A stretch of 57,082 nucleotides of DNA from Blastocystis sp. subtype 4 (GCF_000743755.1 NW_014569517.1:1-57082), one strand, 5' to 3'. Positions 15,018 through 55,494 are shown, numbered from the stretch's first letter. The notes: generated by a model from the letters alone, not told the origin. A program made the numbers and translations.

Positions 15018-15062
15018 AGGGTTTTGTTACAAACACGTTGCGATATTAATTACAAACAGGGG

Positions 15063-15540
15063 ACTGGAGTCCATAGTCACTGGTTTTGGTATATGACTGA
15101 AAAGAGAAGACACATTTAGAGACAATTACAGGTTTTGCTACGACCGAGAAGCAACTGCAGCTAACTGGGATCCACTTGGAGTGAGGAATAATACAGAGAG
15201 GAGTGAGAATCGAGTAATGGTTTTTATGCTGAGTTGGAAAAGAAACCTTTTTAGGTGACACAGCTACGTGGGAGGATATAGACGCCTTAAGAAGCTGCTC
15301 TTTCATAATACGTTCCTTAACTAAATATGATCCTCATACAAATATCATACAATGTCTACTACGGATTCTACATGCATTACAAGTACTGAAAACAGAATCA
15401 GTTCGATTATCAACGAAGTGGTATTCTGCTTTCATTAATCCACAACAAGAACATTTGAAGCATATTCCGGTATTATACGGCTCGCTTCCCTTCGGACGGA
15501 TACAAATATTCATCCGAAACACACAAATAATGGCAGGCAT
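15063..15540 (-). CDS. Small Cys-rich hypothetical protein; predicted poly(A)-created stop at 15063 (genomic stop 15046)
   Basis: FKCSCCGLMK...TCNACR zinc-ribbon-like pairs; one about 30-nt intron joins two ORFs. Confidence 0.5.
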
Positions 15541-16240
15541 TAGTGAAATGGAGAAACAACATTTGGCCAATCACCTGCAAGTAGTTAATGACCAACCAAT
15601 CAGATCGTACGCTAATACTTAATTCATTCATAGTGCATTTTACTTGAATCCTAAGTCGAATGCCACGATATTAATTATGTCAATAGATATGAGGATTTAA
15701 ATCGAAATTGTCAAGTTCAAATTAGTAGCAATGGCCTACAAAAACCGTACTATAATTGGAGTTTAGAACGAAATACTGTATTCTATGGAATTACTGTATC
15801 AAAATGAAAAAGGGACTCTAGTATACTGCAGTAGTTGTATTTGCGATAAACCTGGAATACTAATTGTTTCTTGTGATCAGATTCCTCTATAAAGTAGTCT
15901 ATTTTATAGGTATATTGCAATAATGAAGACCTTGCTTGTAGACCAAAATGATCACACAAGACTGTTCTCTAACATAACTGGTTTGACAATTGATCTATTG
16001 AAATTCCTTTAACGTAAGAAAAAGTAGATAAAGACGCATGTGATGATGATGGATTCCTGCGATAATACCTATTTCCTTGCTTTGAAGATAAACCAAAGTC
16101 TTCATTTTATGATTTTATTTCTCTAGAATGCTTATTTCTAGTCTTATTTTATCTGGGATAGAAGTCATACTATTTCCATCTATTTGCGACATTCCTCAAT
16201 TCGACAATAATTGTCGCAATCTCGAAAAAACTTAGAATCA

Positions 16241-17291
16241 ATGAACGCAGTATTTGGAAAGCTCGTCTTAGATCGAATTATTGCCAAACTAATAGAAGGG
16301 AGGGCACGAGACAAACAGTGGAGAGTAAATTCGAACTCAATGTATGATAGTTGTAGCCAAATATTAAGGAAGAAACTATTCGACTACTGATTCTTCGAAC
16401 CAAAGAAGTTTTGCTATCAGAACCCTCTCTTCTCAAGATCGAAGCTCCAATGGTTGTAGTAGGGGATATTCATGGTCAGTTCCTCGATTTATTGGAGTTT
16501 GTGACTCTTGTATGAGTACTACATATAGAATTCTTCATGTCAGCGGAGACCCTTCCAAGAGTCGATATTTATTCTTAGGAGATTATGTGGATCGTTCAGA
16601 TCGTGGAATCCAAGTTCTGTGTCTTCTGATGGCATATAAGTTGAAGTATCCTGATCACATCTATTTGTTACGTGGAAACCATGAGTCAGAAGAAATGAAT
16701 GATGATGGAGGATTCCGAGATGAATGTTTACAATACTATTCTCTTGGTCTATATAAAGATTTTCAGAGTCTCTTCAACTGTCTTCCTGTTGCTGCTATTA
16801 TTTCTAATAAGATATTGTAGATATGAATGGACAAGTTGACGTATAGTTGTGTTCATGGGGGTCTATCTCCTGATTTGTCGTCTATAAAAATGATAAAGAA
16901 TATTAAGCGTCCATGTACAATTCCTTTAAGTGGACTATTATGTGATCTCCTTTGGTCCGATCCCTGTAGTGATGTGAAGGGCTATGCTCCATCGCCTCGT
17001 GACTGTGCATATTTGTTTGGTCCTGATATTGTGGAGGAGTTTATGTCTCGTTTTGATTTTGATCTGATTGTGCGTGGTCATGAATGCTGCGATGGATACT
17101 GTTTTGCATTTAATCGAAAATTGGTTACAGTATTTTCAGCACCGAATTATTGTGGTTGTGAGAAAAATGCTGCTGGAATCATGTTTATCGATAAAGATTT
17201 GTCTTGTCGGTTTGTATTGATTCGAGAGACAAAGCCGCTAAGGAGAGGATCCATTGTAAAGCCAGATACTCTGGAGATCATTAATAAATGA
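16241..17291 (+). CDS. PP1-like Ser/Thr phosphoprotein phosphatase catalytic subunit
   Basis: [43 protein letters not shown]. Confidence 0.95.
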
Positions 17292-17355
17292 GTTCGTGTA
17301 CTATTACTTGCAGTCTGTTTGTGAAATTACAGTTACGAACAAACAAACGAAATGA

Positions 17356-18474
17356 CTACTTTGGCTTGTTATACACACTTGTCTTGACATCATCTACAAG
17401 TTTGTCCACATTCGTCTTCTTTAACAACTCTTTTGGTAATTCCTTTGGTGGAGGAGGAATAATATCCTCCTTCTTCGAGAATGTCAGCCATCGCTTCAGT
17501 GTGATTCGTGCTTGCTTATTCACACAAATCGTCTGTATTCCCGCAAAGACAGAATTAACAATCCAATACAAACACAAACCCTAGATATCAACACCTCCTC
17601 ACAATGCTACAGATTGCATTTTAGCAGCCACAAAAATGGTAAAAAGAGACATTGCTCGCATCATATACTTTGTCCCAATTTGACCATTTGCATTCATTCC
17701 ATCAGCCCCTAATTCTGTCATAAAGAGAGTAGACACTCCAGCAATAACAGGCAGAACAAAGTATGGATCTGGAATGGCAAGATTGGGGAACCACAGACAA
17801 CCACCCTCGGCTACGGCGGGGACTGTCTCGCACAGCTTACGGATTCCAAAAAAACACGACATAATCACAGGAAGCTGGATCAACGAACCCAGCATAGGTC
17901 CCATGGGAGAAACACCCGCCTGCTTATAGATATCCATCATCTCTTCACGGACCTTCATTGCGTCAGATGCCAAACCCATGCTTTGTGAGAGACGAGCTCG
18001 TTCCACCAACTTATTGAGTTCCGGCTGAATCTCTTGCATTTTCTGTCCCTGTTTGGTTGCCTTAATACTAAATGGTAGTAAGATGACTCGGAACCCAATA
18101 CACACTATACATCATCTCCTCAACCCATCTTCACCTCCTGTAATTGCACCCCACCAAGGGAGACCTAGTTGATTCATCCACGAAATCAAAGACACGACCC
18201 AAGTCGTCGGTGTTCCAACAGAAACCCCAAACAGTCCATACTTCAGTGCAGTGTTGTTGATATCGCACAACCAAAGATGTTTATTCTCTTGGATCATCTT
18301 CACCTTCTGCTTGAAGGCTTCGAAATGAATTTCGCGACGTTGTTGCACCCTACTCAAATCCAACCGTGAAGTTGAAGCTTTCACGGTCATAGACGATACT
18401 CCCCTAATGGTCGTAGCTACCAAAATTAGATACCTCAAAAGGAGTGTCTGACGTGTCACAGAGCGAAGCATCAT
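17356..18474 (-). CDS. OXA1: Oxa1/YidC membrane insertase (mitochondrion-related organelle)
   Basis: GLPWWGAI, FRVILLPF, IQLPV, GGCLWFPNLAIPDPYFVLP, LYWIVNS..Q; Arg-rich N-terminus. Confidence 0.93.
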
Positions 18475-18531
18475 CAAGAAAGCGAAGTCCCAAAGCAAGT
18501 GTGAGATCGAGTATTATTCTTTTCTTGTATC

Positions 18532-19139
18532 ATGTTCGCTTTTCGACGTAGTTCAGTGATTTTACGAAATGCATCTGTTCTGCGATCTGCCACTGTAAGA
18601 GGATTTGCTGATGCTGCTCCATCAACTCCTGACGCTGAAGAGAAGGGAGACCCTGAGGTCATTGACTTTATTAAGAAGGTAGAACCCATGGGGACCGTTT
18701 ATTCGTGTAGATTGTTCGAGAGAACAAAGTGATGCTTTTTATGAAAGGAACACCATCGAATCCAGTTTGTGGGTTTAGTCTTCGTGTTGTACAGATCTTA
18801 AAACATCTAGGTGGGAATTGCGAATTTGTGTTTATCCTAGGTTGCGATTTTGCTAGTGCAAATATTCTTACAAGCAAATCTGTAGTCAAGAATCTCAAAT
18901 ATGTGAGGTAGGTTGTCAAGTTTTCTATCGAGTCTAGTGAGTGGAAAACATATCCACAATTGTTCATAAATGGTGAATTTGTTGGTGGATGTGATGTTGT
19001 TACGGAACTCTTCGAGTCAGGAGAATTGAAGAAGATGCTACAAGCAGCCGGTGCTTTTTCCGAACCTGAAGAATCGAAGGGAATGGAAGATCCACCGAAG
19101 TCAGCAGAATCGGAGACTACTCCCAAAGCCAATCCCTAA
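18532..19139 (+). CDS. GRX5: Monothiol glutaredoxin Grx5 with mitochondrial-type presequence
   Basis: [34 protein letters not shown]; presequence MFAFRRSS...VRGFA; TGTTTGTT at 19157-19164. Confidence 0.95.
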
Positions 19140-19235
19140 GTGTTCATTTAGTATTTTGTTTGTTATTTTAATTTACTGAGGTACTGATATCAACGAGATA
19201 TAATCGTCTAGATAACTCAATTCCTTGTGAAACGA

Positions 19236-21032
19236 ATGGCAGATGATCAGACTAAAGTGAATGAAGGACTATTCCTTACGATCATCAAACTCCAAAAATT
19301 GTCAAATGAAGAAGGATATGATAAACAAGATTGTCAGAAGAGGTACTTGTACTTTCTGTCGTTGTTCATAGAATTGTCAAGTGTTGCAAGTATGTACTAT
19401 TGTCAAGTCCATCCTTCTATCTCGACCACAAGTTGGACTCTCTAATGTGGAAAGAAGTGTTCTATTCCAATTATCAAGAGATGAAAAATAATTCAAATAT
19501 AAATTCACAGACTATTATTGAGTTCATCAACAAGGGCATACTCTTTTATGAAGAGTTACTCAAAAGAATTGAACATGACCCTCAATTTGCTTCATGCGTC
19601 TATTTCATGTATATTCATCTTGGTGACCTCCATCGGTACCTTGCAACAGAACAACGGAATGAAACCACTCCAAAAAAGAGCCGATACAGTATCTCCAAGG
19701 CGTTTTATTCCAAGGCTCTTCTGTTGGATCCCCATCATGGATATGCTTATCATGGTTTAGCTGTTCTAGCTACATATGAAGAGACACATTGCCTAGCAAT
19801 CTACTGCTACTTACGTGCAGCCACATGTAGATATCCCTTACGATCAGCAAATCAAAACTTACGAATTGAGTTGGAACAAAATGAAATAGCTCTAAAAGAA
19901 GCTCTTTCCAATCAATCTCTGAGTGCCAAAATCTCTCATAAGAAACAATATGTGGATGTATGGGTACTGAATGTGGTATATCATTAGCTTTTTGCTCTTC
20001 AGTTCATTCATTTGCATTATCTAATATGTTATAATGAATCAACAAATCAGTTCAATGCATCATTAAATGCCTTCAAAGAAACAATGAATTGGTGTATGGA
20101 GAATGATTTGCCCTCCATTCTTCTGATTTATCGAATGATGATTATTGGGATTGTAGGAGCAGCTGATGCTTGGAGACCTGTTCGCGAATCATGTTTGAAC
20201 AAAAGTATTATAATGATATAGCACTTCAACCATCCAATACGCTCACTCAGTCGATAGTTCGTGGTTGGATCGTCTTGTATATCTTCATGACATATGTAGA
20301 TATGAATGTGTTTATCGATATGTAGATAGCTAAATACAGTGCTTCTCTCTCTTCTCCGAAGAAACCAGGTATCTATAAGAGGATGATGCGAAGTAGATGA
20401 TCTCTGTCTCCGACATGTACCAACGATTGCTTTATTTCTTCAATGGATGATTCTTCAAAATGAGAAACAATATCGACCTAGAGTATCCATCTTCCTGTCT
20501 TATTATCTAGTTCTTTCAGAAGAAGATTCATTCATCTCACTCTACTGAAGAGTCATCACACTATCATGTTAGAGATGCTTCCCATTCTATTCAGAGAGAT
20601 AACCTGAGTCAGGAAGATATCTCATACGATGTTACAGATCCATCTTCTTGTATCCCAATTGAACAATTCCTGGACTGTGAGAAGGAGTTCTGGAAAACGA
20701 TGAGTTCACTGATAAAACGTCTGCCAAAGAAAATAAGTGAAAGTCCTGCAGCGAAACATATGTTGCCAATGAAGATAGAAATGGATACAGCAGGGTTTGG
20801 AGCTTTTCGAGGAATGTTTGATCGTATGCAATAGTTTCTATCTAATGACCAGATGTTGAGAGACAAGTGGAAGTATGCTCAAGTCATGAAGCTATTGAAA
20901 GATCCATTGTTACAATTCTTCAAGTGTATCCCTCAATCATTAACGACTCTCAGTGTCCATTTTGTAAATCTAATACTACTGCTCATACTTCTCCAAAGAA
21001 TGATCATGAATCCAAACGTTCTCGCTTATCCT
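19236..21032 (+). CDS. EST1/SMG5-7-like TPR protein; predicted poly(A)-created stop at 21032 (genomic stop 21064)
   Basis: MWKEVFY, IHLGDLHRY, FYSKALLLDPHHGYAYHGLAVLA, AIYCYLRA...ANQNL match the Est1 14-3-3-like domain. Confidence 0.85.
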
Positions 21033-21036
21033 TATG

Positions 21037-21052
21037 TGTTTGTAGACAAACA
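21037..21052. terminator. Back-to-back 3'-end motifs of convergent genes: TGTTTGT-AG-ACAAACA
   Basis: TGTTTGTA on plus at 21037-21044 and TGTTTGTC on minus at 21045-21052. Confidence 0.6.
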
Positions 21053-21060
21053 AGATTCGT

Positions 21061-21835
21061 TTAATCAGAATCAGTGTAATAGTCCTTTGCACTGTTCTTA
21101 CGTGGCAAGAAGAAAGGCATTTTCTTTCCCTCATTCTCACTGTCTGATGACTCCAATGTCTCTCTTAAAGCTTTGTCTTCTTTACGTTGTTGTTCCTCCA
21201 CTACACGATCTTCAATGGCCTTACCCATAATACACACACTAACCATGATTCACTTTCTATATAATTACGCGCAAGGAGCATTAGCCAAAACATAGGTACT
21301 CACACTTCCATTGATGAGTCTTATGCTTAAGTGACAATCACACATATACCTCTCAACATTACCCATTCCTCTTCTTCCCATGACAATCGTATCAATCTTC
21401 TTCTCAACTGCATAAGAACAGACAACCTGGTGTTAAGAGGACACATACATTCAGAAACAGGATATCTTTGCAGGGTCGCCACGAGCGCAAACCACCTCCA
21501 CATTTTGGAATCCCTTGTCATTTGCAGTTTTCTTCATCTCATCTAAGTGTTCCTGAGACTCTTTCTTCAAACGGTCATTGACAACAACATCGTGTGCATA
21601 GGCTACATATTGAGTCAGACAAAGAGATTATACTGGGAGTCTTGAGATTCAACACATTCAGAACAAGAAGGGAGTCTACAGGCTTCATAATTTTCAAAAC
21701 CCATTCAAAGCAAGCTGTAGCTTGGATGGAAAAGTCCATCGGAACGAGCCAGCGCAATCCCTATCGATATCACCCATTCCGATAAGCACCTACAGTACAT
21801 TCACCATTGCTCTCAAACACACCACTTTCTTCCAT
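21061..21835 (-). CDS. Universal stress protein (USP) family
   Basis: Spliced LRWLVPMDFS...ACFEWVL, GDPAK..VCSYAVEKKIDTIVMGRGGMG, GSVSTYVLANAPC. Confidence 0.9.
21427..21465 (-). other. U12-type intron in the USP gene (AT-AG 39 nt, or AT-AC 36 nt ending at 21430)
   Basis: Minus strand ATATCCTG...CTCTTAAC-ACCAG contains an in-frame TGA; the GT-AG alternative frameshifts. Confidence 0.8.
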
Positions 21836-22234
21836 TTCGTTGATCCTTTGGTGAAGTCACCAAAAAGTGGAAACAGAGCAACAGATCACTGTACAGATCG
21901 CGTTAATAATTATAAATTAGTCAAAGAATCACTGTTTCCTATTCTTGTTATTTCATTGTATTGATCCTTCTATAAACCCTGCTTTAAAATATGGAGTTCA
22001 TCTGAGAACTATCTGGGAAACGATTTAGGATTACAGGTTCTCTATTATGAGTATGAATAAACAATAATACTTTATTAAGGAAATCCAAAGAGATAATAAT
22101 ATAGATTCTGTGCATTGAACCTTGATCACTTAACTCTGGATTCTACAATCCTTATCTTTATCCCTATCTTCAGTTACATTCAAAATAATACAAATTCTGC
22201 TGAGCACTATCATTCATAAGGATCTTTTGCACAA

Positions 22235-22771
22235 ATGAGCTCTATACCTCCTGTTGCCAGTCTAGCACTGTTTGTTGATAGTATTTCCTATTAAGCCGTT
22301 AATTATTATCAGAACCTGTATTAGTCGTTCTTCTAGATGGAATTCATTTATATGGGATTCTACGGAGTGTGGATCAATATGGTGGGTTTTGAGTGTGACT
22401 AAATGTTGCTTACACTCTTTTAGGCAATTTTGTAATTGATAACTGTTTTGAACGTGTATTCCGTGATTTCTACTATACAGAAAATCAGTTAGGTCTTCAA
22501 ATTGTTCAGGGAAACAATACTTGTCTCATTTCCGATATAGTATGTTTATAGATAAAATTACTGATGGATAGAACGGTTCTCTTCAATCTTGTCCAATTGA
22601 AGGTATGCAATTGTTAAGCAATGAAGAGTTCATCGAATATATCAATCTTCCTGACGAAGAGAAAAGTATGGAGATCGTGGAATGGACCTAAACGTAGTGA
22701 AACGAAATCAGGGAAAGTCTTGTAGATTTGCCTCCAATGAAGACTACACCATCAGACTTGCTACTGTATGA
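22235..22771 (+). CDS. LSM1: LSm1-like Sm-fold protein (4 introns; absent from ORF track)
   Basis: Spliced MSSIPPVASLALFVDKPVLVVLLDGIHLYGILRSVDQYGNFVIDNCFERVF...GLQIVQGNNTCLISDI matches the Sm1/Sm2 motifs of LSm1. Confidence 0.8.
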
Positions 22772-23526
22772 TTGTATACTAATTATAGTTTGTAACAAAC
22801 AATCTCTAAAGAACGATTAGAACTATTGCACAACCAATTCTCATGTATTCTTGATCAACACACAATCCTTGTTTCTGCCCTCTTTTGCCACCATCGTTTC
22901 CCAAATGACAGATAGACTGCAATCACTGAGCTTATTCCATTAAATGGCAATGCAGAAACATAGAAAATGATAAATCAGTATGAGTTATGTTATAACCATT
23001 GTTGTTACACTCTTCCCCGAAAGATGATACCATCCTATTATCATTTCCCATTCATTGAGGATCAGTTTGCAGTTAAACGACCATGAGTTAAGTCTCACAA
23101 TGAGTTATCTTCCTTCCTCAAATGACAATGAACATACCAAGAAAACTGACAATTCCTTACCTTCTCCTTCACTATTATCTCTTATTGAAACAAATATGAC
23201 AAAATGAGTGGAGAATCGAAAATGCCCCCTATTTGAAATATGCCATATTTCTTAGGTATTATTGTCTATAACCTTTTTGCCCCATCTTGCAAAAATCCTC
23301 CATGCTTACAAATTAAAACAACAATGTCATTTACGATTATCTCCCTGTTTTGTGGGTGAAATAAGCAATTAAAAGAAACTAAACAATGATTATGTTCATT
23401 CCGGCTATACCTCGAAAGGAAGGAATTCATTCTTTTTAACCAGTATATAAGAGTTTGGAAGGACTTAACAAATGACAAAAATAGACCAGATTTTTCGTAT
23501 TCATTATCTTCTATACAGTAGAACAA

Positions 23527-25055
23527 ATGGACTCATTCATTGCATTCTTTCGAAGTCTCGAGGTGGACCATATCGAGATGATGAACCCAAGAAGACCATT
23601 AAATGGTGAAGGTACTGTCTTCTTTAAGGGAGCCTATTATGGATATTCAATGAAAGCTGCGTGGATGGATGATAAAAAGGAAGGTCTAGCGGTGATTTAT
23701 GCTCCTGATGGGAGTGTTTTTGCCGAATTCACTTGTATAAATGATGAAATCATTGACGTTCTGACTTATCCTCCACAAACCTCGAATCGTTCCCCTGCGT
23801 TTTCACCTCAAGCTATTCCGCCAGTAGTAAGTGCTCCAAGCGGACAAGGTAATCCTCAGTCATATTTTTCATCAGGTGTAATGAATACAACTAGCTCAAT
23901 GACAGATCCCCAGTATGGTTACAAGCAACCAAGATCACAGGAAATGAGCGTTATTAGTACTTCTTCTATGGTAAATCCCAAACCAAGTGTTGTGAGTATT
24001 CCAGCGAGTCCTGATGTCAGTGTTATCTCAACCCCTGCTAGTATACCATCAATTGCTGTTTCAACACAATCTAGCGTTGGGACAACGAGGCCAATCTTCG
24101 TGGCTCCTAAGCCTGTTGAAGTTACTATTCAGTCCGATGAAAGCATGTCTCATCCTGGATTAGTCAGTCTAGGATCCCCTGAGAGTAATCCTCCTCTCCC
24201 AACATATCCTGGTCGTACGCTTCCTTTAGAGCGTCAAAGTCTAACTCATCGCTGTCTTGAAAGAAAGGGGCTATTTTGGACAGTTGTGGGAATCATCGTA
24301 GCCGTGTTGATTCTGATTGTTCTCCTTTGTGTATATTTGGCAGCACGCGAAGAAGGTGTGGAATTGACCAGTGATAAGGTTCGTATTCCAAAGAATGTGA
24401 AAACGATTACTGTGCGAGAATTAGAATCCGGATCCCTCGCCTTGACCAAGATTGATCTTGATGGGTTACCCAAAGTAACATCATTTACTGCGGTTTACAT
24501 GTCATTCCCCAGAATCTCCTATGTGTCTTTAACCAGTCGGTTTGAATTTTCCTTTCAATGTAGATCTTCCTAAACTGAAAACCATTACTATCGAGTCTTT
24601 AGCTTTCCAGTACACACATAGTTTTACTCTTAGTAGTAAGTACTGTTAGCTGTGTTGAATATAGATCTACCAATGTTAGTGGCAATCAAGTTAGGTGATC
24701 AGGCTATGACGCTGGATAGTGTATTTTTATCAGGAAGTGATTATAAGAATTCTGTTACCTTGACAGGTAGGCGTGTTGAAATGTGGTGATGTAGATCTCC
24801 CCTCTTTGAGTTCTCTGACTATTTACAATAACTTTGAATATGCTGGAGAATTTACCGCCACTAGTAAGTGTGTTGCAGAACTGTGATGTAGATTTCAATA
24901 CAGGGTATACACTTTTGTACTTATCTGATATAAGTCATTCAATTTGTAAAGTGACAAGACAATCTATTTCTAGTTGATGTGTTCTAATTGATTCATGTGT
25001 AGGAGCAGGAGTAATTGAATCCTATATTAATGACGCTATTCGATGCTCTGCGTGA
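23527..25055 (+). CDS. Single-pass membrane protein with Ser/Pro-rich N-region and C-terminal LRR-like repeats
   Basis: TM LFWTVVGIIVAVLILIVLLCVYLAA, then repeats LDGLPKVTSF, LPKLKTITI, LPMLVAIKL, LPSLSSLTI on successive short exons. Confidence 0.75.
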
Positions 25056-25139
25056 TTTGTGTATGAATATTAGTAGTTACAAATGTTTATGGATCATAAA
25101 TCAACGGACATAAATAGATCCCATCTTTCTAATAGGTTA

Positions 25140-25212
25140 GCCCGTCTAGCTCAGTCGGTAGAGCGCCAGGCTCTTAACCTGGTGGTCGAGGGTTCGAGCC
25201 CCTCGGTGGGCG
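25140..25212 (+). tRNA. tRNA-Lys(CUU)
   Basis: Cloverleaf GCCCGTC/GGTGGGC; anticodon arm CCAGG-CTCTTAA-CCTGG; TTCGAGC T-loop; T-runs downstream. Confidence 0.98.
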
Positions 25213-25313
25213 ACTTCTTTATTCTTTTTGGTTATTCTCATCAACAAACATTCGGATTCGGAGCTTTCAGAATAACCCAGAAAGGACATATAAGGACAAT
25301 CCTCATATGACAC

Positions 25314-26529
25314 TTACTCGGAAACAATGGGGAGGGCTTCTACCCCATAATACTGTTTCTTCAACTCCTTATACAGATGCCAACGACTCATAGCATATCC
25401 CTTACTATCCCAGTCTGTTCCTAATTCCGTCTGCATGACTGCCCAAACAAACCAGAAAAAGAAGGAAAAGCACTGGAAACGATGCACAAGTTGTTGCATC
25501 TCATTCACATTGCTTTCAGATGGATCCTTTCCATCTACATGAGACTCTGATGAAACTCCTACATCGTTCTAAAAGATAGGCATGAATGAAATTCTTCTCT
25601 TCTTCATCTGTAGGATGCAATGAAAAATCAATCCAATAGGAGGGAGAATCATATCTTGTCATCCACTCGCAATAGTGATGACAGATATCCAATGGAGCTG
25701 GTAACAGACACGTATACTCAAAATCGATAATTAGTACTTCACCCTTTGCATTCTTCAACACATTCCCACGAAGCAGATCCTGATGGCCATAAACTATATC
25801 TGTACTCTCATTTCGAATGAGTTCTTCATTTCGATGGATTTCCTCAAGCAAATTGCAAATGTTCAGATCTTTAAACAGATCGGGATGATCTTTCTCTGAG
25901 TACTAATATCCAAAATGTACAATGCTTCTGACAGATTTGAGCCCATGATCTCATAACAGAGTGAAACTCGTCAAAGTGAGCAATTTCAGTCTATTTGTTG
26001 TTTGAAGAAAACTATTCTACTCGGATGTTATGTAGATCTGCCAGTTTCGCTGCGATTCTTCTAGAAATCACCGGATCACGACAACCAAGGTCATTCAGGG
26101 ACTATCTTATTATAGAACCAAAGCAATACAGTGAATCCAACTCTCCATAGCTCCATCCGTCCTTCAGGAAAGGAACACAGAAGCTCGATACCAAAGTTGT
26201 TCTTGGAAAGAACTGAAAGGAACTTTAATTCCTTTTCTCGATTCAAGAAATCGCTACTTCCTACGCATTACCACTTCCTTGATCACATACCAGCCCCATA
26301 GATACGGAAAAGAATAGGAAAATCATCTTCATCGGATTTCTTGGATAACTTGTAGATTATGTTCGTTAATCCATCTATCGCCTCATAAGTGTTGTCATAT
26401 CTCACCCTTGTTCTGGACCATATTGAAATCGTCTACAGAATGCACGTCGTTCCATTCTGGTATGGTTTGAAGTTGTTTCCAGGCAAACTGCTTTCTTTCG
26501 TCATAATTGAGTTCCAAAAGTGATGACAT
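25314..26529 (-). CDS. Choline/ethanolamine kinase
   Basis: GLTNIIY, LFRIYG, REKE, HQDLLRGNVL (Brenner-like motif), IIDFEY, DICHHYCEW, FFWFVWA. Confidence 0.92.
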
Positions 26530-26588
26530 CTTTGTATCAGTCTAGATAGAATGTTCTTACTCCTTCTTCAGTGATAGAAAGAATAATG

Positions 26589-26596
26589 AACAAACA
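26589..26596 (-). terminator. TGTTTGTT 3'-end motif of Nit2
   Basis: TGA-CG-TGTTTGTT; the T of the stop is 5 nt before the motif. Confidence 0.8.
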
Positions 26597-26598
26597 CG

Positions 26599-27644
26599 TC
26601 ATTTCAACATTCGAAATTCATACATATCAGAACGCTTCTGCTTCAAGACAGGGATTGCTTGCCTACGTATCACAGGAAATGCCAGTCATAACCTCACTTT
26701 ATCACACTCACTCAAATCAACATCAGCAATCAGAACATCCTCCTTTTCATCCAATTCGCCAATCACCTTTCCCCAGGGATTGACCACAATACTATGACCA
26801 TAGGCAACATACGATCCATTCACATCTCGAGCGGGAGAGCAAAGGACCACAAAGGATTGAGTGTCTACAGCACGACCCTTTGCAAGAATCTCCCAATGAA
26901 GAGGTCCAGTTGTCATATTAAACGCAGATGGATATACTAGTATTCTGCATCCCATTTTCGAATATGCAAGACTACAAGTGAGTTGGTAACGAAGATCCAA
27001 ACCTCAGTTCTGGGAATCGCATATCATAACATACACCAATTCCAATATCAACAGCCGTCTTTGGAAGGGAGCAATGATATACAGTAAACGAATCACCAGC
27101 TGTCAGGGTCTCACTCTCTTGGAAACAGATACCACCGGGAACGTTCACGTCAAACAAATGCATTTTTCGATGTTTGGTAATCAAATCGCTCTCCGGAGAT
27201 ATGGCCATTGCAGTGTTGTAGACCTTGCCATTGCATAATTCCGGAATGCTGCCACCGATAATAGGAATACGATGTTTGCGAGTCTCTTCCAATAACATCG
27301 ATACCGAAGGGCTTTTGATTGGATCCACGTCTTTGCAACTCTGGTCATTATTCTTCCCTCAAATACCAACTGTAGGAATGCATTCCGAATTTTGCCGAAA
27401 CAACTTCGTATCGTAGGAACTAAAGAGTAATAGAAGTGATTCAAAAATACCTGTTGAAGCATTCAGGAAGAACCACCAGATCGGCTCCTTGGGACACTGC
27501 TTTACTGATCATGGTTCTTGCCTTCGCTAAATTGATCATTTTGTTCTATTCTTCATATCCTTTCCGAGATTTAACAGAAGAAACCATCATCTGGCACAAA
27601 CCAATTCGAAACTTCATCGATTTGATGGCAGCTGATGCAGACAT
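26599..27644 (-). CDS. NIT2: Omega-amidase Nit2 (nitrilase superfamily)
   Basis: Catalytic triad in LPECFN, HRKMHLFD, GVCYDMRFPE; AFNMTTGPLHW; ends RQAIPVLKQKRSDMYEFRMLK*. Confidence 0.94.
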
Positions 27645-27743
27645 GGAAGTTTGTTGATTGTTTGAAGTGAGGAATGAAGTGACATATGTAACTATCACTA
27701 GTAGAATAGGTTGAATATGTTGTTTCCGGTTATAATTCGTGTT

Positions 27744-27751
27744 AACAAACA
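27744..27751 (-). terminator. TGTTTGTT 3'-end motif of Clp1
   Basis: TAA-TGGT-TGTTTGTT. Confidence 0.8.
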
Positions 27752-27755
27752 ACCA

Positions 27756-29349
27756 TTACTTTTCATTCCATGTAATCTTACCCTTCAATAGTATATTACC
27801 AGGCAAATCTCCTCCAAGAGGAGTCACCAATCGAATCACTCGATCATTAACATTAACACTGGAGACAAAAACAAATCCGAGAATGGAAGAAGTAGGAAGA
27901 TCTTTCACTCTACAATTCATTCTATAATTATATAGTAACTCTTTTGCATCAGTTACAGCGAGGATCTGATGATACAATTCTTCTGCTCCAACTTCACTTA
28001 CTTTCATCATTACTTCTTCTTCAGCTGCTTTCGGAGCAAACTACAGTTCAAGGACCTCTTCACTGTTACAGTATCTCGATGACTCACAGAAACGCGATCA
28101 TTATACATTACAACCTTCACTTCATCCAGACTTCGTACTAACTGACTTGCAACAGCCAATTCGCCATCGGTAGCAATATATCCTATGCAATGAGAATCAC
28201 AATTTACTGATCACCATAAAAATAATTATCAATAGACAATCGATTCTCAAGATCATCTGCTCCCATAGGAGTTACAACTCCTTTGGAAAGAGGTAGTTGT
28301 TTAACACATAGAGAAGGATATGAGTCCCGCAATACATTCTATAGATTAGAATTCATCAAAATAGTAACATAGATGAAATCGTCATGAATGACCAAAATCA
28401 AGTCGATTTTCAACAGCTCGATGACCTCATCTAAGAGAGGTCGACTTCCATCTTCCTTGTACCAAGAACCCCCATTCACAATCAATCCTCCATGAAATGC
28501 CTTCTCATCATTCTTCATTCGCGTTTCCACATCAGCAGCAATGGAATGAAGACAACGCTTGAATCTATCTCACAGCTCTGTTTGCATTTCCTACAATTCT
28601 GGATTATCCATACAAGATTGGAAACCATAAAACTCAACACGAGGAGAAGGAAGGAACTTTTGAACTCTCTAGAAAGTCATTGTAGAAAACAAAGACTACA
28701 GGCGTCAAAATGCTTTCCTTGTTAACGACAACAGCACTCATGCAGCCAGGCACGGTGATATTTCCACTAGCAATATCTAGGTCTAAATAGACTGGAGACT
28801 CGTTGAAACGAACCTAAGAGTCACTAGAAGCATCCATTTCAACAGCATATGATAGTAACGTTTGAGCTAATGTATATTTGCCGTGATTTGGGTTGCTAAG
28901 AATAAGAACCTATCAGTAAGATAAAGCAGGAGACAATCACTCGAGGAGCAGTTCTCGAGTTATATGGATGTACATTATTACGTTCAGTTTGTAACTAGTT
29001 ATTACCAACATCCAAAAGATCCACTTGTTTGTGAATATCAAGATACAAGGGCGTAAGACTTTCGTTTGATACATAGGCCCCTTTACATCGACCTTCCAGC
29101 GTTACTTCCGAATCAAACCATGCAAAGAGTGCAAACTACATTTCAGCCAAAGTATCCTCAAACAACATTTCGATTGACGATTGTTTGTTTGTCGCGGATT
29201 TGACATCCATTAATTTCAATTCCTCCGTGATTAAGCTACATATGTTAATCACTTCTCAAACAGTCTACCGTAATCTTGATCGGGTCATTCTTGGAACATT
29301 CAACACGTAACTCTCTTCCCGCTGGAATCCGGTAGTGTTCAGTATTCAT
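27756..29349 (-). CDS. CLP1: Clp1 (pre-mRNA cleavage factor / RNA 5'-kinase family)
   Basis: ELRVE N-terminus, YAVRFNESPVYLDLD...VPGCMSA, GLIVNG.SW, LPLSKGVV, NYFYG, ILGFVFVSSV...LVTPLGGDLP. Confidence 0.9.
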
Positions 29350-29504
29350 CGAAAAGAATATTGACCAAACTCTAGGGAGTGATTTTAAACTCCTTAACAC
29401 TAGTTTTAGAACAAACAACTGGAAATGTCACAAGTTGCGAAACAGCCTACGAGATACCCTTAATCAGCCTTAGGTTTGTCTGCACTTCTACTTCATGATT
29501 TGCT

Positions 29505-29699
29505 TCAGTTACCATACTCTGTTTCAGGATTCTCTCCTTGTGGGGTATCCTTAGATTTACCATCAGTTCCTTGACAAACCTTCTTTGCGAAACAACTAAT
29601 GCACGACTCGGCAAGGAAAAGCACTAATCCCGTCGCAACTCCAATACCCACAGTTTTGCCTGGACTAAGATCATTCAACAGTTTCGTTATCGTATCCAT
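29505..29699 (-). CDS. Small single-TM protein (64 aa)
   Basis: MDTITKLLNDLSPGKTVGIGVATGLVLFLAESC...; TGTTTGTT on minus at 29410-29417. Confidence 0.55.
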   Translation of the reverse strand: MDTITKLLNDLSPGKTVGIGVATGLVLFLAESCISCFAKKVCQGTDGKSKDTPQGENPETEYGN

Positions 29700-29746
29700 T
29701 GTGTCTATAGTCAATGAAAGAATGACAGTTCTTTTCTCCTTCTACT

Positions 29747-30531
29747 ATGGAAACAGAAATTGAAGTTATAGGGGATAAGTAAGTTTATTTCTGATATGTT
29801 TCTAACTAACGCAGAAAGATGTTTCATCTTTTCCTCAACAAACAAGACTTCAAGTTTAGTTCCGGTCATTTTATTGCTTACCAAGTATATTGTCGACTTA
29901 CTTCATCATTCTAGGGTTTTCGCGAACCACTTCACGGACACAATTATCATGCCACCGTATTGTTTGAATTTACTGTGTGATTCGCAGATTGCTATGAAGG
30001 GACAGCTGAATCCTGATGGGTATGTGATGGATTTCGGTGATGTGAAAAATGTTCGTTATTGGAATGTATGTCACTCCTAGTATATGCGTATTGAATGCAA
30101 GAAACTGAACCAGAAGTTTCTTCTCCCAATGAAGAGTGATGTCCTCACTGTCAGTCCAAAGAAGCTTATTCATGTGGTAGATCAAAGAGAACGGAGACAA
30201 CTGGGAAATTACAACTGAAGATAACTGCTTCTTTTCGTAACTATATGTGTGAATCGTAATCAACAGGTTTCCAAAGAAGGACTGCTGTTGTCTTCCTCTT
30301 GTTCACTCTTCAGCTGAGGAGTTGGCGAGATATATCGTTATTCTTTTGCCTTTTCCTCACTTCTAGGTGGGAGAACTAATCGAATCCATTTCTCTTCCCG
30401 TTCTCCAGGTATGTCTCTACCTGAGGACTAATAAATAGAAACGAGGTATCTACGAAATTACAGTGGGAGTTAGCGAGATCGAAGGTCAAGAGGCTAGATA
30501 CACCACATCTGTGAACTATAGTTCTCACTAA
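29747..30531 (+). CDS. 6-pyruvoyltetrahydropterin synthase-like protein, Glu-type (PTPS-III); 8 introns
   Basis: Spliced FKFSSGHFIAYQGFREPLHGHNY...GYVMDFGDVK...FLLPMKSDVL...LPLVHSSAEELARYI...VSE. Confidence 0.9.
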
Positions 30532-30606
30532 GATGTTTGTCACCAAACAAGTGGAATGTTAGGATTATCCCTTTCTGGAAAGTGATCATTATTTAGCAGT
30601 TTTCTT

Positions 30607-31811: not shown

Positions 31812-31904
31812 GTTACTTTAGTGTGTCGCATAAGCGGATTGACAAGTTCCTGATGTTTGTTGAAACAATCTTGGAATAGTTTAGACTCTAATATAGGTCC
31901 ATGT

Positions 31905-31912
31905 AACAAACA
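31905..31912 (-). terminator. TGTTTGTT 3'-end motif of the Arc1-like gene
   Basis: TAA-TA-TGTTTGTT. Confidence 0.8.
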
Positions 31913-31914
31913 TA

Positions 31915-33168
31915 TTATGAAATGTGAGCATTCGGGAACTTCGTACATGTAACAACACCAGCAGATGTTGTGAATGGCACATCCTTAAAACAACACACTC
32001 CCTCTGCATTCGTCTTCAAGAACTACACGTCATCAATCCTCTCCTTTCTTACCGGAGCCAGAATCTCTACATACTTCTTCTTCTGGACTTGAGCAGGAGT
32101 AGCAGCCTCACCTTCAAATCCAGGGAATGTCACACGCTCACCGATCTTAGCACCTTCAGGAGGATCAATCAGAGCACCGGCACTGTGATCCTCTGTTGAA
32201 GCACACAGCAACATGCCATTGGAAGGGAATCCTCCCAATTTCCTTGGCTTCAGATTACAGAGTACACAAACACGGTGACCCTGCATCTCCTCAAACGTAT
32301 GGAATGCACGAATACCTGAACCAATTTGACGGGTCTCAGCTTCACCCACATCTACTTCCTCACAATATAGTTTATCGGAGTCAGGATGATTCCAGGCACG
32401 CACAATTCGACCTACTCGAATATCCAACTTGCTAATGCAATCTGTGTCTTCAGCTTTGGGTGCTTCGGGCTGGGGAGCGGACTCTTTCGCAGCTGCTTTT
32501 GCCTCCTTCTTTGCAGCTTTCTTTGACTCCATTGGCTTAGGGGTAGGAGCGTGAATGTCAATTGCATCAAAAGCAAAATCAATCTTGGCAATTCCGAGGG
32601 TTTGACAGACGGAAGCATAGGTATCTTGCATGTACGAATACCAACGAACAACATTCACATATCCATTGTAAGGAGCAAACGTTGTCTAATACATGATAGA
32701 TCAGTATAACGATTACCAAATGTTGAGAAACAGCAAAGAAGAGAGCAAAATCAGCCACACTGACACTAGTTGCAACACCTACAAAAGTTTGGGCTGCCAA
32801 CAATTCGTTCAGTCTCATCATCAAAAGTTTCACATTGTAATTCGTCGTTGTGTACTCCTCAGCAAGATCAAGAGCATTGGCAACCTATGTCCTCATTCTA
32901 TAATAAACCATACCAGCTCCTTATCAGCTGCACTTCCACCAAGCAATGCGGCAGTTTTCTTATCCTTTCCCGTAAGAGCCACAAGCACCTCTTTCAGACC
33001 AGAAACAGTTTTCTTTCCATCATCATACGTGAATTCCTATACCATTACACACCTACTTCAACGACATACACTACCACACTCGATTAAACCCTCCTCGTTC
33101 ATACCAAGGAACTTACACACAGCAGCAACAATAGCATTCTTCTCTCCTTCAGGGACAGTTATCTTCAT
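31915..33168 (-). CDS. Arc1/AIMP1-like aaRS cofactor (GST-like domain plus OB-fold tRNA-binding domain)
   Basis: SVADFALF, NVVRWYSYMQ, LDIRVGRI..AWNHPDSDKLYCEEVDVGE, LCNLKPRKLGGFPSNGMLLCAS. Confidence 0.9.
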
Positions 33169-37723: not shown

Positions 37724-37731
37724 AACAAACA
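37724..37731 (-). terminator. TGTTTGTT 3'-end motif of CDK, inside the genomic ORF
   Basis: ATC-TG-TTTT-TGTTTGTT with no preceding stop. Confidence 0.8.
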
Positions 37732-37735
37732 AAAA

Positions 37736-38794
37736 CAGATATCAGGATTCGCATATTTCGACTTATCAAGACTGTTAAACCATGGATGATGCAGAGCTTC
37801 ATAAGCAGTAATTCGCTTGGATGGATTGTAACAGAACATTCGCTACAACATAAGACTCCCATTCTACCTCTACATTTAATAGATCTTCAGCTAAAGGATC
37901 CAAATTTGTCAATGTCTTCTTGATACTACGTTGTGGCCATTTCGGGAATTCCTTGTTATAGAAGGGAAGTTTTGTAACACCAGGCCAAACTTCTTCCGTT
38001 GGAGTTCCTAACGTGCTACATATTATTGATCCCACTATTATCCACTTGAAGATTCGGAAAATCATATCAATCTCATTCTCACCTCTCCAAATTGCATCTC
38101 CCTGTAGCATTGTCACAATTACATGTCCAGCAGACCATATATCAACAACAGGTGAGTACTTCTCCTGGTTGAGGAGAATCTCTGGTGCTCTGTACCACAG
38201 AGTCATCACTTCATGAGTAAGCGTTCCAATGGGCAATGAAAAGGTACGAGCCAAACCAAAATCACACAATTTTAAAGTCTTATCTTTTCGAATCAGAATG
38301 TTCTCTGGCTTCAGATCACGATGCATAATGCCGACACCATGAATGTAATCCAGAGCCAATAGTAGTTGGTATGCAAATGACTACACTTAAAAGACATGAC
38401 CATCCAAACCTTCACCTCCTCGAGGGGCATTCCACCAACTTTCTGACGCTCAATTATATATGTAGTAAGACTCATGTCAATGCACTCAAATACCAAATGG
38501 ATGCGCCCTTCGCTATTCTCGACATCTGTTAATCTGGACGAATTATACATTTGATTTTATCCAACTTTACAATATTTGGATGGTCCAAAGAACGAAGAAC
38601 CGAGATTTCCCTCAAAGACGTACTAGGAATCCCATCACTACTATCTTCAACTTTAACTTTTTTCATAGCAACAATTTGGCCCGTTAAACAGTCCATGGCC
38701 TTAAATCTACAATCCTCATCAATATCATCAATAGTTACACTACTCCATATGCTCCTTCACCTATCGTGTCGATTCGTCTATATCGATTCAACAT
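37736..38794 (-). CDS. Cyclin-dependent kinase (CDK1/2-like); stop predicted as TG+poly(A) at 37737-37736 (genomic stop 37639)
   Basis: [61 protein letters not shown]. Confidence 0.95.
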
Positions 38795-38891: not shown

Positions 38892-38965
38892 AGCTAACGG
38901 TGGGACTCGAACCCACAACCTCTGGATTAGAAGTCCAATGCGCTATCCAATTGCGCCACGCAAGC
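38892..38965 (-). tRNA. tRNA-Arg(UCU)
   Basis: GCTTGCG...TTGGA-CTTCTAA-TCCAG...GTGGG-TTCGAGT-CCCAC-CGTTAGC; one T-T mismatch in the acceptor stem; TTTTT downstream. Confidence 0.95.
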
Positions 38966-39100
38966 AATCACTAGTCCTTCTAATTAATTCTATTTCAGTA
39001 TCATTTCGTTGTCCATAATATTTAGATTCACTAGTATCCATCCAATTATAACTTTGTTTTTAAAATCAGAATATACTTTGATTTCACAAATATAGGACAA

Positions 39101-43024: not shown

Positions 43025-43067
43025 AAACAGCGAATTCTGCGTTTCCGAATCCTTACAAATTATCGAA

Positions 43068-43457: not shown

Positions 43458-43459
43458 TA

Positions 43460-43467
43460 AACAAACA
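43460..43467 (-). terminator. TGTTTGTT 3'-end motif of tafazzin
   Basis: TAA-G-TAAT-TGTTTGTT. Confidence 0.8.
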
Positions 43468-43472
43468 ATTAC

Positions 43473-44721: not shown

Positions 44722-44791
44722 AGTTGTTTAGAAATGGTGCACATAAACACCGTACGGATAGTCGTACTGATGAACAAACACTCCAAAATCC

Positions 44792-47384: not shown

Positions 47385-47443
47385 GATCCCAACGAAATGT
47401 GTGTCGGAAGAATAAACAAACTCCCAAACGTAAATGAACAACC

Positions 47444-49719: not shown

Positions 49720-49907
49720 GATTCTCAAATGGGAAAACAAGAAATTGGAGATTCTCCGTTTCTAGCCATCTATTCTCTTTGACACTTATCATATTGGATT
49801 GGATAGTGTAGACTATATAGTATCCTTCTTTCGATAAGAAGGAATGGAATCAAAAACAAACAACAAACACTACTAAAACTACATTAAAGGGAAGTAAAAA
49901 GTCAAAA

Positions 49908-51626
49908 TTATGAAGAGGAAGGTAATAACGAGAGATGGCGTCGGAATGCTTCTTTTCCCCTTTCTTCAGTGCTCACAGTTTCCAAAAAACGAAAAGAAGC
50001 ATTCGCTTTGCAAATCGACTTTGTATAAATGAGTGTCACCATCACCGCATTGCTCCAGTCCCTTCCACATCGCAAGCAAAATAGACCTGATTCTACGTTA
50101 AATGCAATAACTATAAATGAAATAAAAGAAAGAAGAAGTACATTGCAGCAACGAATGCTCATGACCAATAGCTGTTAGTCCAAAGCATACTTCTAGCTGA
50201 TTCTAGATTTTATCTCGGAAAAACCCTTCCTTACTCGTATCTCCTTCAGAACATCTCCGTCACGTAATGGTTTTGAAAGTTGAGCCTTGTCAATTTCCAA
50301 AATCCCAATCAAATATCGACACTTGAGTCTCATAGAGAAATACTAGACTTGCAAGTATGAAACAAAAAAGAATCAATTCAATTCACGAATTTGTTGTAAT
50401 AGCTGTTTATTCTCTTCACACACAATGTCAATGTCGTCAAGCAAAGCTTTCACATCCTGTAACTTCTGCTCTCCCCATGACTCCTTCAATTCTTCTTCTG
50501 TGATACCAAACAGTTTTGCTGTCATAGAAATCACACCATCTAATCGAGAAACCGAATCACCCTTCGCTTCACCACTCACAGAAACTTCCTTAGAGTAATC
50601 CTTGATAGGAATGATCGAATCAGGACATTGAGAACGGATCCGCATCAAATCACAATCCACTATTCTTCACAGTCATTAGCAGTATTTACTCGATATCGTT
50701 GAAGGATATTCGATGGAAAGAAATGCATGTCCCTCACTTACATGCGAGAGACAACGTTGATGATTCCGATATTCAATAAAATCATTAACAACGAATGGTT
50801 TTCCATTTGTTTGAAACAAGTCCTCATCATCAGAATCTTCCAGACTAAGTGTCGATTGCGTCTCTGACTTTTTATCATAGGCTAGAGCATGCCAGATAGT
50901 CTTTGCATCTTCAATAGAAATAGGCATATTGTGAATCTGCGAGCATTGATTGGTTACATATTCCCAATTAATATGATCTATATAATACATAACGATAATC
51001 AATACAGGAATTCGATAACTGGATGTTATTCAAAATGGCTTCTAGGACATGACATTGTATTTGAGACGAAAAACGACTAGAAGACAAACGACTACAATCA
51101 AACAAATTCCTAAAAACAACTCGATTGGTGCTGTGTAGGTTGAAGATACACGTTTCAAAGCTACCGATTGTTTTGTATCTGTCAATGGTCGATCCCCAAT
51201 GGAATGATACAGCGGAGATGTCCGCATTGGAGGATTGGAAAAGAGTGGATATTGTCGCTTCATCAAAAGAAGCGATTGATTTGCCTGAGAAATCTGATCG
51301 TCATCCCCGTTCACCAAAATTACTTCCTTCTCATAAATGTGTTTATATTTCTTCTGGATATCTGCGTCATGACGATAGAAATCAAACATTCTAACAATCA
51401 CATAATAGACACACCAATACAATTTATATACCTCTCTTCGAGATAACTCTGTGTGTCTTGTCTTGAAAGCAGCATATTCTCGATTGCGAAACAGAAGAAA
51501 CGGTGATGAATACTGTTTCTACACTAGTAAGGTCATACAAAATAGGTGATATACAATCATCGAGGGTGGACCCAACGTAAGTGAATTCGTCTCTGACGTG
51601 GGTTTATCAATATTTCCTTGCTCCAT
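49908..51626 (-). CDS. Hypothetical multi-exon protein, possibly MCRS1-like (Myb-like segment, possible C-terminal FHA)
   Basis: Splicing of mostly about 30-nt introns joins four ORF-track pieces; INWEYV...EDAKTIWHALAYD recalls MCRS1 ERWYALLYD; tandem TGTTTGTT at 49855-49869. Family call is weak. Confidence 0.45.
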
Positions 51627-51749
51627 CGGATTATTCCGTAGTTAAGTAATCGGAATAAACAATAAGAGTAGTTCTTCAACAATAGATTGACAGAAGTTTT
51701 ATTAAGAAACACAATAGTTACAAGTATTACAAGAAACGGAAAATGGAGA

Positions 51750-52632: not shown

Positions 52633-52645
52633 CAGTTATTCTCTA

Positions 52646-53400
52646 ATGATGGAGGAGGAGAAACGATATGTTGATAAGACCTATTGGGACAATCGGTACG
52701 CATCGAAAATGGAGTCCTTTGAATGGTAGTTTCTTGTTCTCTATATAATTGTTAGGGTAATCGGATACGAGTCATTAAAAGCGTTTGATATAGATAGGTT
52801 CATAAAGAAAGATGATTCAATTCTGTTTCCCGGATGTGGCAATTCGTGTATCAAATCCGCAAATAACTGATCTTCAGTAATCACTCGGGACATGTATGAG
52901 GACGGATACCACAATCTTACTGCCATTGATATTTCGGATGTAGTTATTCAGCAAATGAAAGAACGTGATAAGGATTATCCGTTAATTCAATGTAGCTCTG
53001 ATTTGATCCATTTGAGAGTAGATACAATTATGGATTGTTTTAACTTGTCATTTCCAACTGATTCGTTTGATGTTGTGATTGACAAGAGCACAATAGATAC
53101 ATTCTTATGTTCTGAAGAGCTACTTGAACAAATCCCGTTGTATTTGCAGGGTATATGTAGAGTTCTAAAGGAAGGAGGGACATTAATTGTCATATCATTT
53201 AATGAGCCAGATGTTGTATGGATTCGTTTATGTTTACACTGTAGTTTGATATGATTGCCTCTCTTTCTGATGACTTGTCCTATGATCTGGCTATGCGACG
53301 ATGTAGGTTAATTTGGTATCATTAATTGAAGGGGAGCAAGATCCGTCAAATCAGGAAGATCAAGGATTATTCAGTTATGTGTATATTTTTAAACGGAAGT
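52646..53400 (+). CDS. EEF1AKMT4/METTL13-like SAM methyltransferase; stop predicted as T+poly(A) at 53400
   Basis: YWDNRY....FEW, ILFPGCGNS, LTAIDISDVVIQQM, FDVVIDKSTID, RVLKEGG, SYVYIFKRK. Confidence 0.9.
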
Positions 53401-53438
53401 TCACTGTTTGTGTCATTCACATCGAAACATATCATCCC

Positions 53439-53848
53439 TTAACTAACATCTTCATTGTCACTATTGGTATCTTCTTTCAATAAGTCATCATCACTAAGGT
53501 GTGTGTCATCTCCCGTCTATAAATCATTAATGAATCCAACAGCTACCATATTCACGACCGAAGCAGCTTCTTGTTCCGTAATGATAGGAACTGGATCTGA
53601 AGGCTGTGGACTCAACGCTAATCCAGGTCCTACACTTCGTTTCTCTCGTCTAGATATGAAACATACCACTAACTTCACACTCCTTCAAAAGTCGTTCATA
53701 CTCCTCTAATTCTTCCTAATCATAACCATCAGACACGACAAAGTACATCAATTGTTGATGGGACAAATACTTTCCTGATCACCGCAACAATTACACAAAT
53801 GATAAACACTGACGCAATGGCCCCAATGACAGCCAGTATCGCTCCCAT
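53439..53848 (-). CDS. Small protein with N-terminal TM anchor and acidic tail
   Basis: MGAILAVIGAIASVFIICVIVAVIRK...; two introns; ends DNEDVS*. Confidence 0.55.
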
Positions 53849-53911
53849 GTAGATTAGAATGGATTCCAGAAACAGTAACGTTTTTGATATCTTTCATTTT
53901 CTCCTTTCATC

Positions 53912-55397
53912 ATGATCCTTGCATTCATCATCGACACTTCAGCCCATATGAACCAACTAACGGCAACTGGGTTTTCCATTATCCGTGTTGCTCAATCGAT
54001 TGTTTCTCTTGCAGCATTTCTTATATATAGGCACTCAACATTCTCCGTTTGTGTCAGCCAACAGACAAAGTGGCTGTGTTCACCTGTGAATCGTCGGGAG
54101 TTATTATTCTTCACAACCCTAAAGATGCAGAAGTTTGTATACAATCCATTGAGGCGAACAGCGTTTCTGATCCACAACGATTAATACGAAATGCTGTTAA
54201 TAGTATTCATGAATACCTCCTAAGTAAAGAGTGTGATACATTTGTCTGCTTGCTATGTGTGTTTGATTCATAGATCTATGGTCGTTTCCGACAGTTGTCT
54301 ATTCCTGTTACATATGTTTTTCTTTCCTCTGCGCTATCTCTGAAAGGAACAAACTCTTCGTGGGACTTTGTTGGTCATGACAATCTTTTATCTCCGTTCC
54401 GGTGGGATCAGCAATTTAATGCATACATTATATATTCTCCAGTCTTATTCAACAATACACCTCTTGAAGTGAAAGACAGTTCGTTGTATGCAATTTGTAT
54501 TAGTACTCGAGGACAGTTATTCAAAATTGATTCATTGTCTACCGCTCTTTCAGCAAACAATCAACTATTCTTAACAAGTCTTAAAGGAACAGATGTGGAT
54601 AAATCTCCTAAGGCCCATTTTTATCCTTCTGTGATTCTCATTTTTGACAAGCAAACATTGCCACAAAACTATCTGAAGAATATTGATTCGTTCCCAGAAT
54701 TTATGCAGGGGCTCGCTAAAGGAGAAGGTTTATCCTTTCCTATTCCTCTTATTCCAGCAGAGTCTTCATCCTTCCTATCGTTATCACAGGAAGAGAAGCT
54801 TGATCTGTTTTTCAAGCATTCCAGTGAGGTACAGTCATTTTATCCCTATCCCGAACAAGGTAAACCTAGAGGTAGCTATCCACTGTTTCGTATTCGGTTG
54901 ATTCATGAAGTTATTCCAGGAACGAGTCTTTTAGTAATCCTTTTCAATAGGAAATAATCGATAGAATCGAATTCAGAAAACTCAGCTTCCCTATGACTTG
55001 ATTGTGATTCGAAGTGATGAGATTCAGGAATACTCCAAACACTATTTGCATCTGCTCTCAGATATCTATCAGTGCTGTTCATCCCAAACCACAAACATTC
55101 GACCATATTTGCAAGGAGAGGATAAACACACTTATGGAGTTCTTCTGGAAGCAAGTGAAAGTCTCGTCAAACTTCTTTTCTTCACTCCTGATTTCCCACT
55201 GCTGGAGGAGAAAATAGAACAGAACGATATCAATTCCATCATTCAATGGATCCAAACAATTCCACTGGAGTATGTTCCCTCTGTGTACTCGTATTTGAAG
55301 TCTTGTAACATTCACATTCCTTTTTCTTGTCCTTCATTACCTTCAAGAAGTCAAATCTCATTCAGAGACCGAATTCAAATCCGGATTTTTGAGAAGT
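53912..55397 (+). CDS. INTS6: Integrator subunit 6-like VWA protein; stop predicted as T+poly(A) at 55397 (genomic stop 55411)
   Basis: MILAFIIDTSAHMNQ....G, PFRWDQ, ICISTRG, PRGSYP match the INTS6 N-terminal half. Confidence 0.8.
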
Positions 55398-55401
55398 GCC
55401 C

Positions 55402-55409
55402 TGTTTGTT
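55402..55409 (+). terminator. TGTTTGTT 3'-end motif of INTS6, inside the genomic ORF
   Basis: AAG-T-GCCC-TGTTTGTT. Confidence 0.8.
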
Positions 55410-55494
55410 AGAAGTTGCTCATCACTGTGAGAAGTTTCTCAGAATTTTCTTGCTTACTTTGCTTTTTGTCTCTGTTCTGCATTCATTATTTTCA

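Follow-up and report, generated by a model that had tools for sequence, protein, structure and literature searches.

How does translation end in a gene whose open frame has reached no stop codon at the point where its message would be cut? In a stretch of 57,082 nucleotides of Blastocystis sp. subtype 4, analysed over its full length and called the window here, the motif that follows most genes lies in some of them ahead of any genomic stop. We hold with high confidence that messages are cut at a fixed position, -5, before a TGTTTGTT-type element, and that the poly(A) tail completes the stop codon in four, possibly five, genes.

The setting is that of a human-clade Blastocystis nuclear genome, as three features attest. 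The GC content of the gene-dense window is 39.7%, next to 39.4-39.6% reported for subtype 4 genomes (PMC5608401, PMC12129017); a methyltransferase exon and a protein of Blastocystis sp. BT1, assigned to subtype 4 (PMC12129017), share 100% identity; and the gaps in spliced contigs of the run X1 are mostly 28-33 nt long, as introns, with GT..AG ends where given. By hand count the window holds about 39-40 genes, and an Rfam search of it returned two tRNAs and nothing else.

We count 22 copies of the motif TGTTTGTT, where 4.21 +/- 2.25 are expected from 100 dinucleotide shuffles, none of which reached 22. This density, 1 per 2.6 kb, resembles the 1 per 2,751 bp published for subtype 4 (PMC5608401). 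The copies are enriched at gene 3' ends: 19 of the 22 mark the end of a gene on their own strand, 18 genes in all, as read by eye from ORF tables and Pfam matches, two (22801 and 29844) are antisense within coding DNA, and one (22269) is internal. A first-pass annotation of this DNA had stated that the motif follows most genes, which these counts bear out; its 16 motif and site coordinates all check out, minus-strand motifs being given there by their lowest coordinate (2955, for example, denotes 2955-2962, minus strand). The looser form TGTTTGT(A/C/G) is far less specific. It occurs 24 times where low-order Markov models predict about 9-10, with six copies at clear gene ends, two at the ORF at 15063, one overlapping a perfect motif and 15 elsewhere, so that writing the element as 'TGTTTGTN' overstates its specificity.

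Where, relative to this motif, are messages cut? Contigs from three runs (X1, X2 and X3) were aligned to positions 12501-32400. Those of X2 and X3 are short, unspliced and without tails in this region, and the RNA evidence comes wholly from X1, whose status as RNA is an automatic guess, though its contigs are spliced and tailed. Among the 12 loose contig ends listed, of 21, on which all poly(A) counts rest, X1 supplies three poly(T) ends of 21-24 letters, all on minus-strand genes, with motif starts at 21052, 25250 and 26596:

21045..21057, minus strand: end of the Usp gene (PF00582), with a 22-letter poly(T) at 21056, TGTTTGTC at 21052 and a 4-nt UTR
25243..25255, minus strand: end of the choline kinase gene (PF01633), with a 24-letter poly(T) at 25255, exactly at -5 of TGTTTGTT
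26589..26601, minus strand: end of the NIT2-like nitrilase gene, with a 21-letter poly(T) at 26601, cut after the T of its genomic TGA

All three put four bases between the poly(A) site and the motif downstream of it, exactly at 25255 and 26601 and compatibly at 21056, where genomic A at 21057/21056 hides the precise point. The fit bears out the mechanism and the -5 ruler of the first-pass annotation, both of them already in print (Klimes 2014, PMC4159000). At the nitrilase gene the template supplies nothing beyond the T of the TGA, and therefore the message ends in UAA and has no 3' UTR: the tail converts T|GA to UAA. This is the sole tail-completed stop in the window seen directly in RNA, a clean and UTR-less UGA-to-UAA conversion in subtype 4, of a kind counted 90 times in subtype 7 (PMC4159000). 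The first-pass annotation does not include this conversion, nor the other three ends that are cut inside a genomic stop. The alignment of a further contig, X1 record 5, breaks off at 25083, leaving one other letter and then 18 that do not align, an end that would fit a tail added from 25079 ahead of a two-mismatch motif. Among the same 12 of 21 loose ends of X1-X3 contigs on 12501-32400, no poly(A) end falls at 15063 or 21032.

The same spacing was then read across the window. We matched 32 gene ends to a motif by eye, 17 of them perfect, 11 with one mismatch and four with two; about seven genes stand outside this set: the ends of two lie beyond the window, one has a clear stop ahead of 29417, and four show no clear motif. 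Under a cut at -5, the genomic stop is absent ahead of the cut at five of the 32 ends, is split by it at four and ends on it at two; the other 21 have UTRs of 1-59 nt, that of the tafazzin gene being 1 nt. Ends at or near this limit include the following:

27744..27758, minus strand: end of the Clp1 gene (PF06807), whose TAA ends exactly at -5, with no UTR predicted
30529..30541, plus strand: gene end with a predicted cut after the T of genomic TAA, motif TGTTTGTC
31905..31917, minus strand: end of a tRNA-binding-domain gene (PF01588), with a predicted cut after the T of genomic TAA

At each of the five open ends, as first reported, the motif precedes any stop and position -5 holds an in-frame T, or G as the second letter of an in-frame TG, an arrangement with a chance of 0.146 per site. 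Motifs internal to exons show it in none of four cases (Fisher, 4/4 vs 0/4, p=0.029, with motifs and genes matched by eye and the p-value therefore not blind). The shared x-x-V-C read-through tails, also pointed out in the first-pass annotation, are present and yet carry no weight, because they are the motif translated in one frame, and three of the four internal exonic motifs read the same way (KTVC, PLVC and HRVC). The proposed share of about 5 genes in 40 becomes 4-5 of about 39 (10-13%), one of the five having even prospects. Comparable shares are 15% in subtype 7 (PMC4159000) and, above that of this window, 26% in subtype 1 (PMC5608401).

We propose the following model for these gene ends. 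Cleavage and polyadenylation would occur at a constant distance, four bases, upstream of a GU-rich downstream element; the UTR may shrink to zero, and a terminal U or UG would then be completed by the tail to UAA or UGA. Four genes, possibly five, that have no genomic stop ahead of the cut are predicted to be processed in this way. In a subtype 7 reporter, mutation of the motif together with two upstream Ts cut output 324-fold (PMC6395660), and recognition of the element by a short CstF-64 is a published hypothesis (PMC4159000); in the window, too, the motif may be needed for expression, with a short CstF-64 as its putative reader. Four of the genes are these:

19236..21032, plus strand: EST1-domain (SMG/Est1-like) gene (PF10373, E 5e-16) with seven predicted introns; predicted stop T(21032)+AA after ...SKRSRLS
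21037..21044, plus strand: downstream motif of the EST1-domain gene, TGTTTGTA, one mismatch
37724..38756, minus strand: CDK1/2-type kinase gene; predicted stop TG(37736)+A after ...KYANPDI, with TGTTTGTT at 37731
52646..53412, plus strand: methyltransferase gene; predicted stop T(53400)+AA after ...YIFKRK, with TGTTTGTG at 53405, one mismatch
53912..55411, plus strand: uncharacterised gene; predicted stop T(55397)+AA after ...IRIFEK, with a perfect motif at 55402 and a genomic TAG at 55409-55411

Do these genes instead read on to their genomic stops (21062, 37641, 53481 and 55409), the motif and the T at -5 being coincidental? The methyltransferase gene speaks most clearly against it. A BT1 protein (P0001, KAK8806140.1, labelled 'partial') shows 100% identity throughout the aligned part, and its last residues are ...YIFKRK, right before T53400. 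The public annotation of BT1 thus already reflects the mechanism at this gene, and being aware of it is not a fully independent witness. Read-through to 53481 would moreover overlap a convergent ORF. Cleavage at 53400, the most strongly supported of the predictions, is almost certain in our view. In the kinase, residues 2-24 of the last exon match positions 270-292 in the CDK1 chain, which is 297 residues long; the TG+A end would fall eight residues past the aligned part, whereas reading on would add 32 residues beyond the end of CDK1, and tail completion at 37736 is accordingly well supported and very likely. For the EST1-domain gene the seven modelled introns sum to 203 nt, the number of gap letters in X1 record 3, an agreement that sets the final frame at ...SKRSRLS|T. 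The contig itself reaches 20999, 33 nt short of 21032, and read-through would again overlap a convergent gene. We regard the predicted stop at 21032 as well supported and likely.

The fourth gene gives the read-on alternative its best case. Its genomic stop comes just four codons on, and two-mismatch motifs stand at 55460-55469. A relative with 45% identity (P0002) is shorter by about 12 residues at this end and fits either C-terminus, and Pfam and PDB searches with the 53912-55397 gene gave no family match. A resemblance to Integrator subunit 6 (INTS6) had suggested itself, but those same searches lend that label no support. Here it is the ruler that points to 55397, a likely stop to the same degree as 21032. 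The read-on alternative also draws on the motifs at 21037 and 53405, which belong to the one-mismatch class found away from gene ends in 15 of 24 cases, and on the perfect motif at 22269, which is read through. Set against this, an in-frame T or TG stands at -5 at all four sites, a coincidence of about 5e-4 (not blind), and with the BT1 protein end, the kinase length and the convergent overlaps we consider reading on very improbable. Less probable still, to the point of being nearly negligible, is that errors of assembly, or last introns that went unrecognised, account for the missing stops. Short introns are dense in this genome, and the end of P0002 could conceivably be an intron start, but the predicted methyltransferase stops where the BT1 protein does, inspection of the sites turned up no plausible intron of 28-33 nt, and four independent contigs (L001-L004) are 99.7-100% identical over parts of 5049-20608, including 15063, the other four sites lying outside them. 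Tail completion therefore remains our reading of the four genes. For annotation its consequence is practical: the genomic stop lies 5, 10, 32, 27 and 4 codons past the predicted ends at 15063, 21032, 37736, 53400 and 55397, respectively, and gene callers that seek a stop give these genes false tails of 4-32 residues.

Is the motif sufficient for a cut? One perfect copy argues otherwise:

22269..22276, plus strand: perfect TGTTTGTT inside an exon, 4 nt before the 5' splice site, read through by an X1 contig

The contig spans it with a GT..AG joint at 22280-22313 and at least 68 letters on each side, and the base at -5 is a third codon position. A copy of TGTTTGTG at 13576 is likewise spanned by an X1 contig. 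The motif alone is therefore insufficient, unless a contig merges two overlapping transcripts, and the copy at 22269 could help to find what else defines a true cut site.

The fifth open end, at 15063, lies in an orphan ORF and is considerably less certain:

15046..15333, minus strand: orphan ORF and candidate gene, with an in-frame T at 15063 and a genomic TAA at 15048-15046
15028..15058, minus strand: two TGTTTGTA motifs flanking the genomic TAA, starting at 15058 and 15035

The one-mismatch motif at 15058 would yield T+AA at 15063; its identical second copy, just past the genomic TAA, would yield an ordinary 6-nt UTR. Two accounts are evenly balanced here: a candidate tail-completed stop at 15063, or a minus-strand ORF that is no gene at all or ends at the genomic TAA by way of the 15035 motif. 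For the candidate stands a relative, 81% identical (P0004), in which the start, the SPVCN end, the open frame and an identical block of 31 residues are all retained, even though the four residues before SPVCN all differ between the two. A competing plus-strand ORF (15233-15619), whose sole match is a 98% identical protein, scores slightly better than the minus strand over 15340-15600 in an order-3 codon model (-4.6 vs -7.2 per 100 nt, a small difference in a weak model). The minus-strand ORF has no Pfam match, and an atlas search with P0011 gave scores of 0.80-0.81, the chance level. The window and four of four loci have a TGA where 164-residue database versions (P0003, P0011-P0015) read W; those versions are likely machine calls under another code, and strain variation was rejected as their origin on the evidence of the four loci. 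A 30-nt GT..AG stretch could drop this TGA in frame, and depth arithmetic suggests a low-depth RNA contig, on one strand or the other, over 15156. A metagenome scan found only the near-identical loci L001-L004, and none from another subtype. An RNA gene as the cause of the conserved block at 15110-15200 was rejected, the Rfam search having found only tRNAs. The first-pass assignments thus hold for the four genes above, whereas that at 15063, with its second motif past the TAA and no family, is left at even prospects.

Identical motifs flanking the TAA at 15063, and an SPVCN tail conserved in the relative, prompt the further thought that choice between two cut sites might act as a C-terminal switch, with two C-termini at 15063, CPVC exposed at 55397 and context gating, perhaps through U1 binding, at 22269. 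A missed cut at 55397 would leave CPVC as what we take to be a CaaX-like end. If true, the read-through motif beside the 5' splice site at 22269 would mean that context gates the ruler. We think such a switch improbable; a fixed cut at -5 remains the preferred account.

How does the window compare with known systems? Poly(A)-created stops in Blastocystis nuclear genes have been known since 2014, and this system as described in the accounts drawn on here (Klimes 2014, PMC4159000; Gentekaki 2017, PMC5608401; Lind 2025, PMC12129017) shares with the window the genus, TGTTTGTT, the four-base spacer and the same UAA, UGA and UGA-to-UAA conversion classes. Measured against those descriptions the mechanism does not differ, and the window adds gene-level examples only. 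For subtype 4 the case was called likely but not shown by Gentekaki 2017 (PMC5608401); Lind 2025 (PMC12129017) reports the element in subtypes 1, 3 and 4, the last annotated with RNA. Mitochondrial stops in mammals, dinoflagellate cox3 and Diplonema, as summarised in PMC4159000, likewise complete a terminal U or UA to UAA with the tail, but they are organellar and, unlike those in the window, not set by a nuclear downstream element. The dual-use stop and poly(A) signals of Giardia and Naegleria, as described in PMC11529991, occur, as here, in compact genomes with very short 3' UTRs. There, however, the genomic stop forms part of an upstream signal, whereas in the window the tail would make the stop and the signal lies downstream.

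Under the -5 rule, by which the poly(A) tail begins five bases before the downstream motif, the gene for the pre-mRNA cleavage factor Clp1 is left with no UTR, its genomic TAA finishing right at the predicted cut. The poly(A) site of the choline kinase gene, 25255 (-), is adjoined by tRNA-Lys(CTT), which lies just past it on the opposite strand. Two gene ends, 51042-51120 and 53443-53453 (-), show no motif that clearly fits the -5 position, and both were excluded from the motif tally.

27751-28040, minus strand: Clp1 gene (PF06807)
25140-25212, plus strand: tRNA-Lys(CTT)
38892-38965, minus strand: tRNA-Arg(TCT)

X1, the run of spliced and tailed contigs, presumably RNA, aligned over 12501-32400, skips 49 nt with AT..AC ends within the C2H2 zinc-finger gene (30669-30717), likely a minor-type intron. 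Its contigs also lack a 39-nt stretch of the Usp gene, 21427-21465 (-). The ends of this stretch, CT..AT on the plus strand, read AT..AG on the gene strand; this intron is non-canonical or minor-type, its joint possibly shifted by 2.

The transketolase frame has a GC content of 47-48%, higher than that of its intron-rich neighbours, and the formin gene contains an internal repeat, the segment KKLHMPIENLKQ..., of which three copies are seen.

1-736: histone H3 and H4 genes, head-to-head
11274-13034, plus strand: transketolase frame, 586 codons, no stop interrupting
39792-41147, minus strand: formin gene
19236-21032, plus strand: EST1-domain gene, tail-made stop predicted

A stop completed by the poly(A) tail is predicted in the EST1-domain gene itself, a member of a family connected to nonsense-mediated decay.
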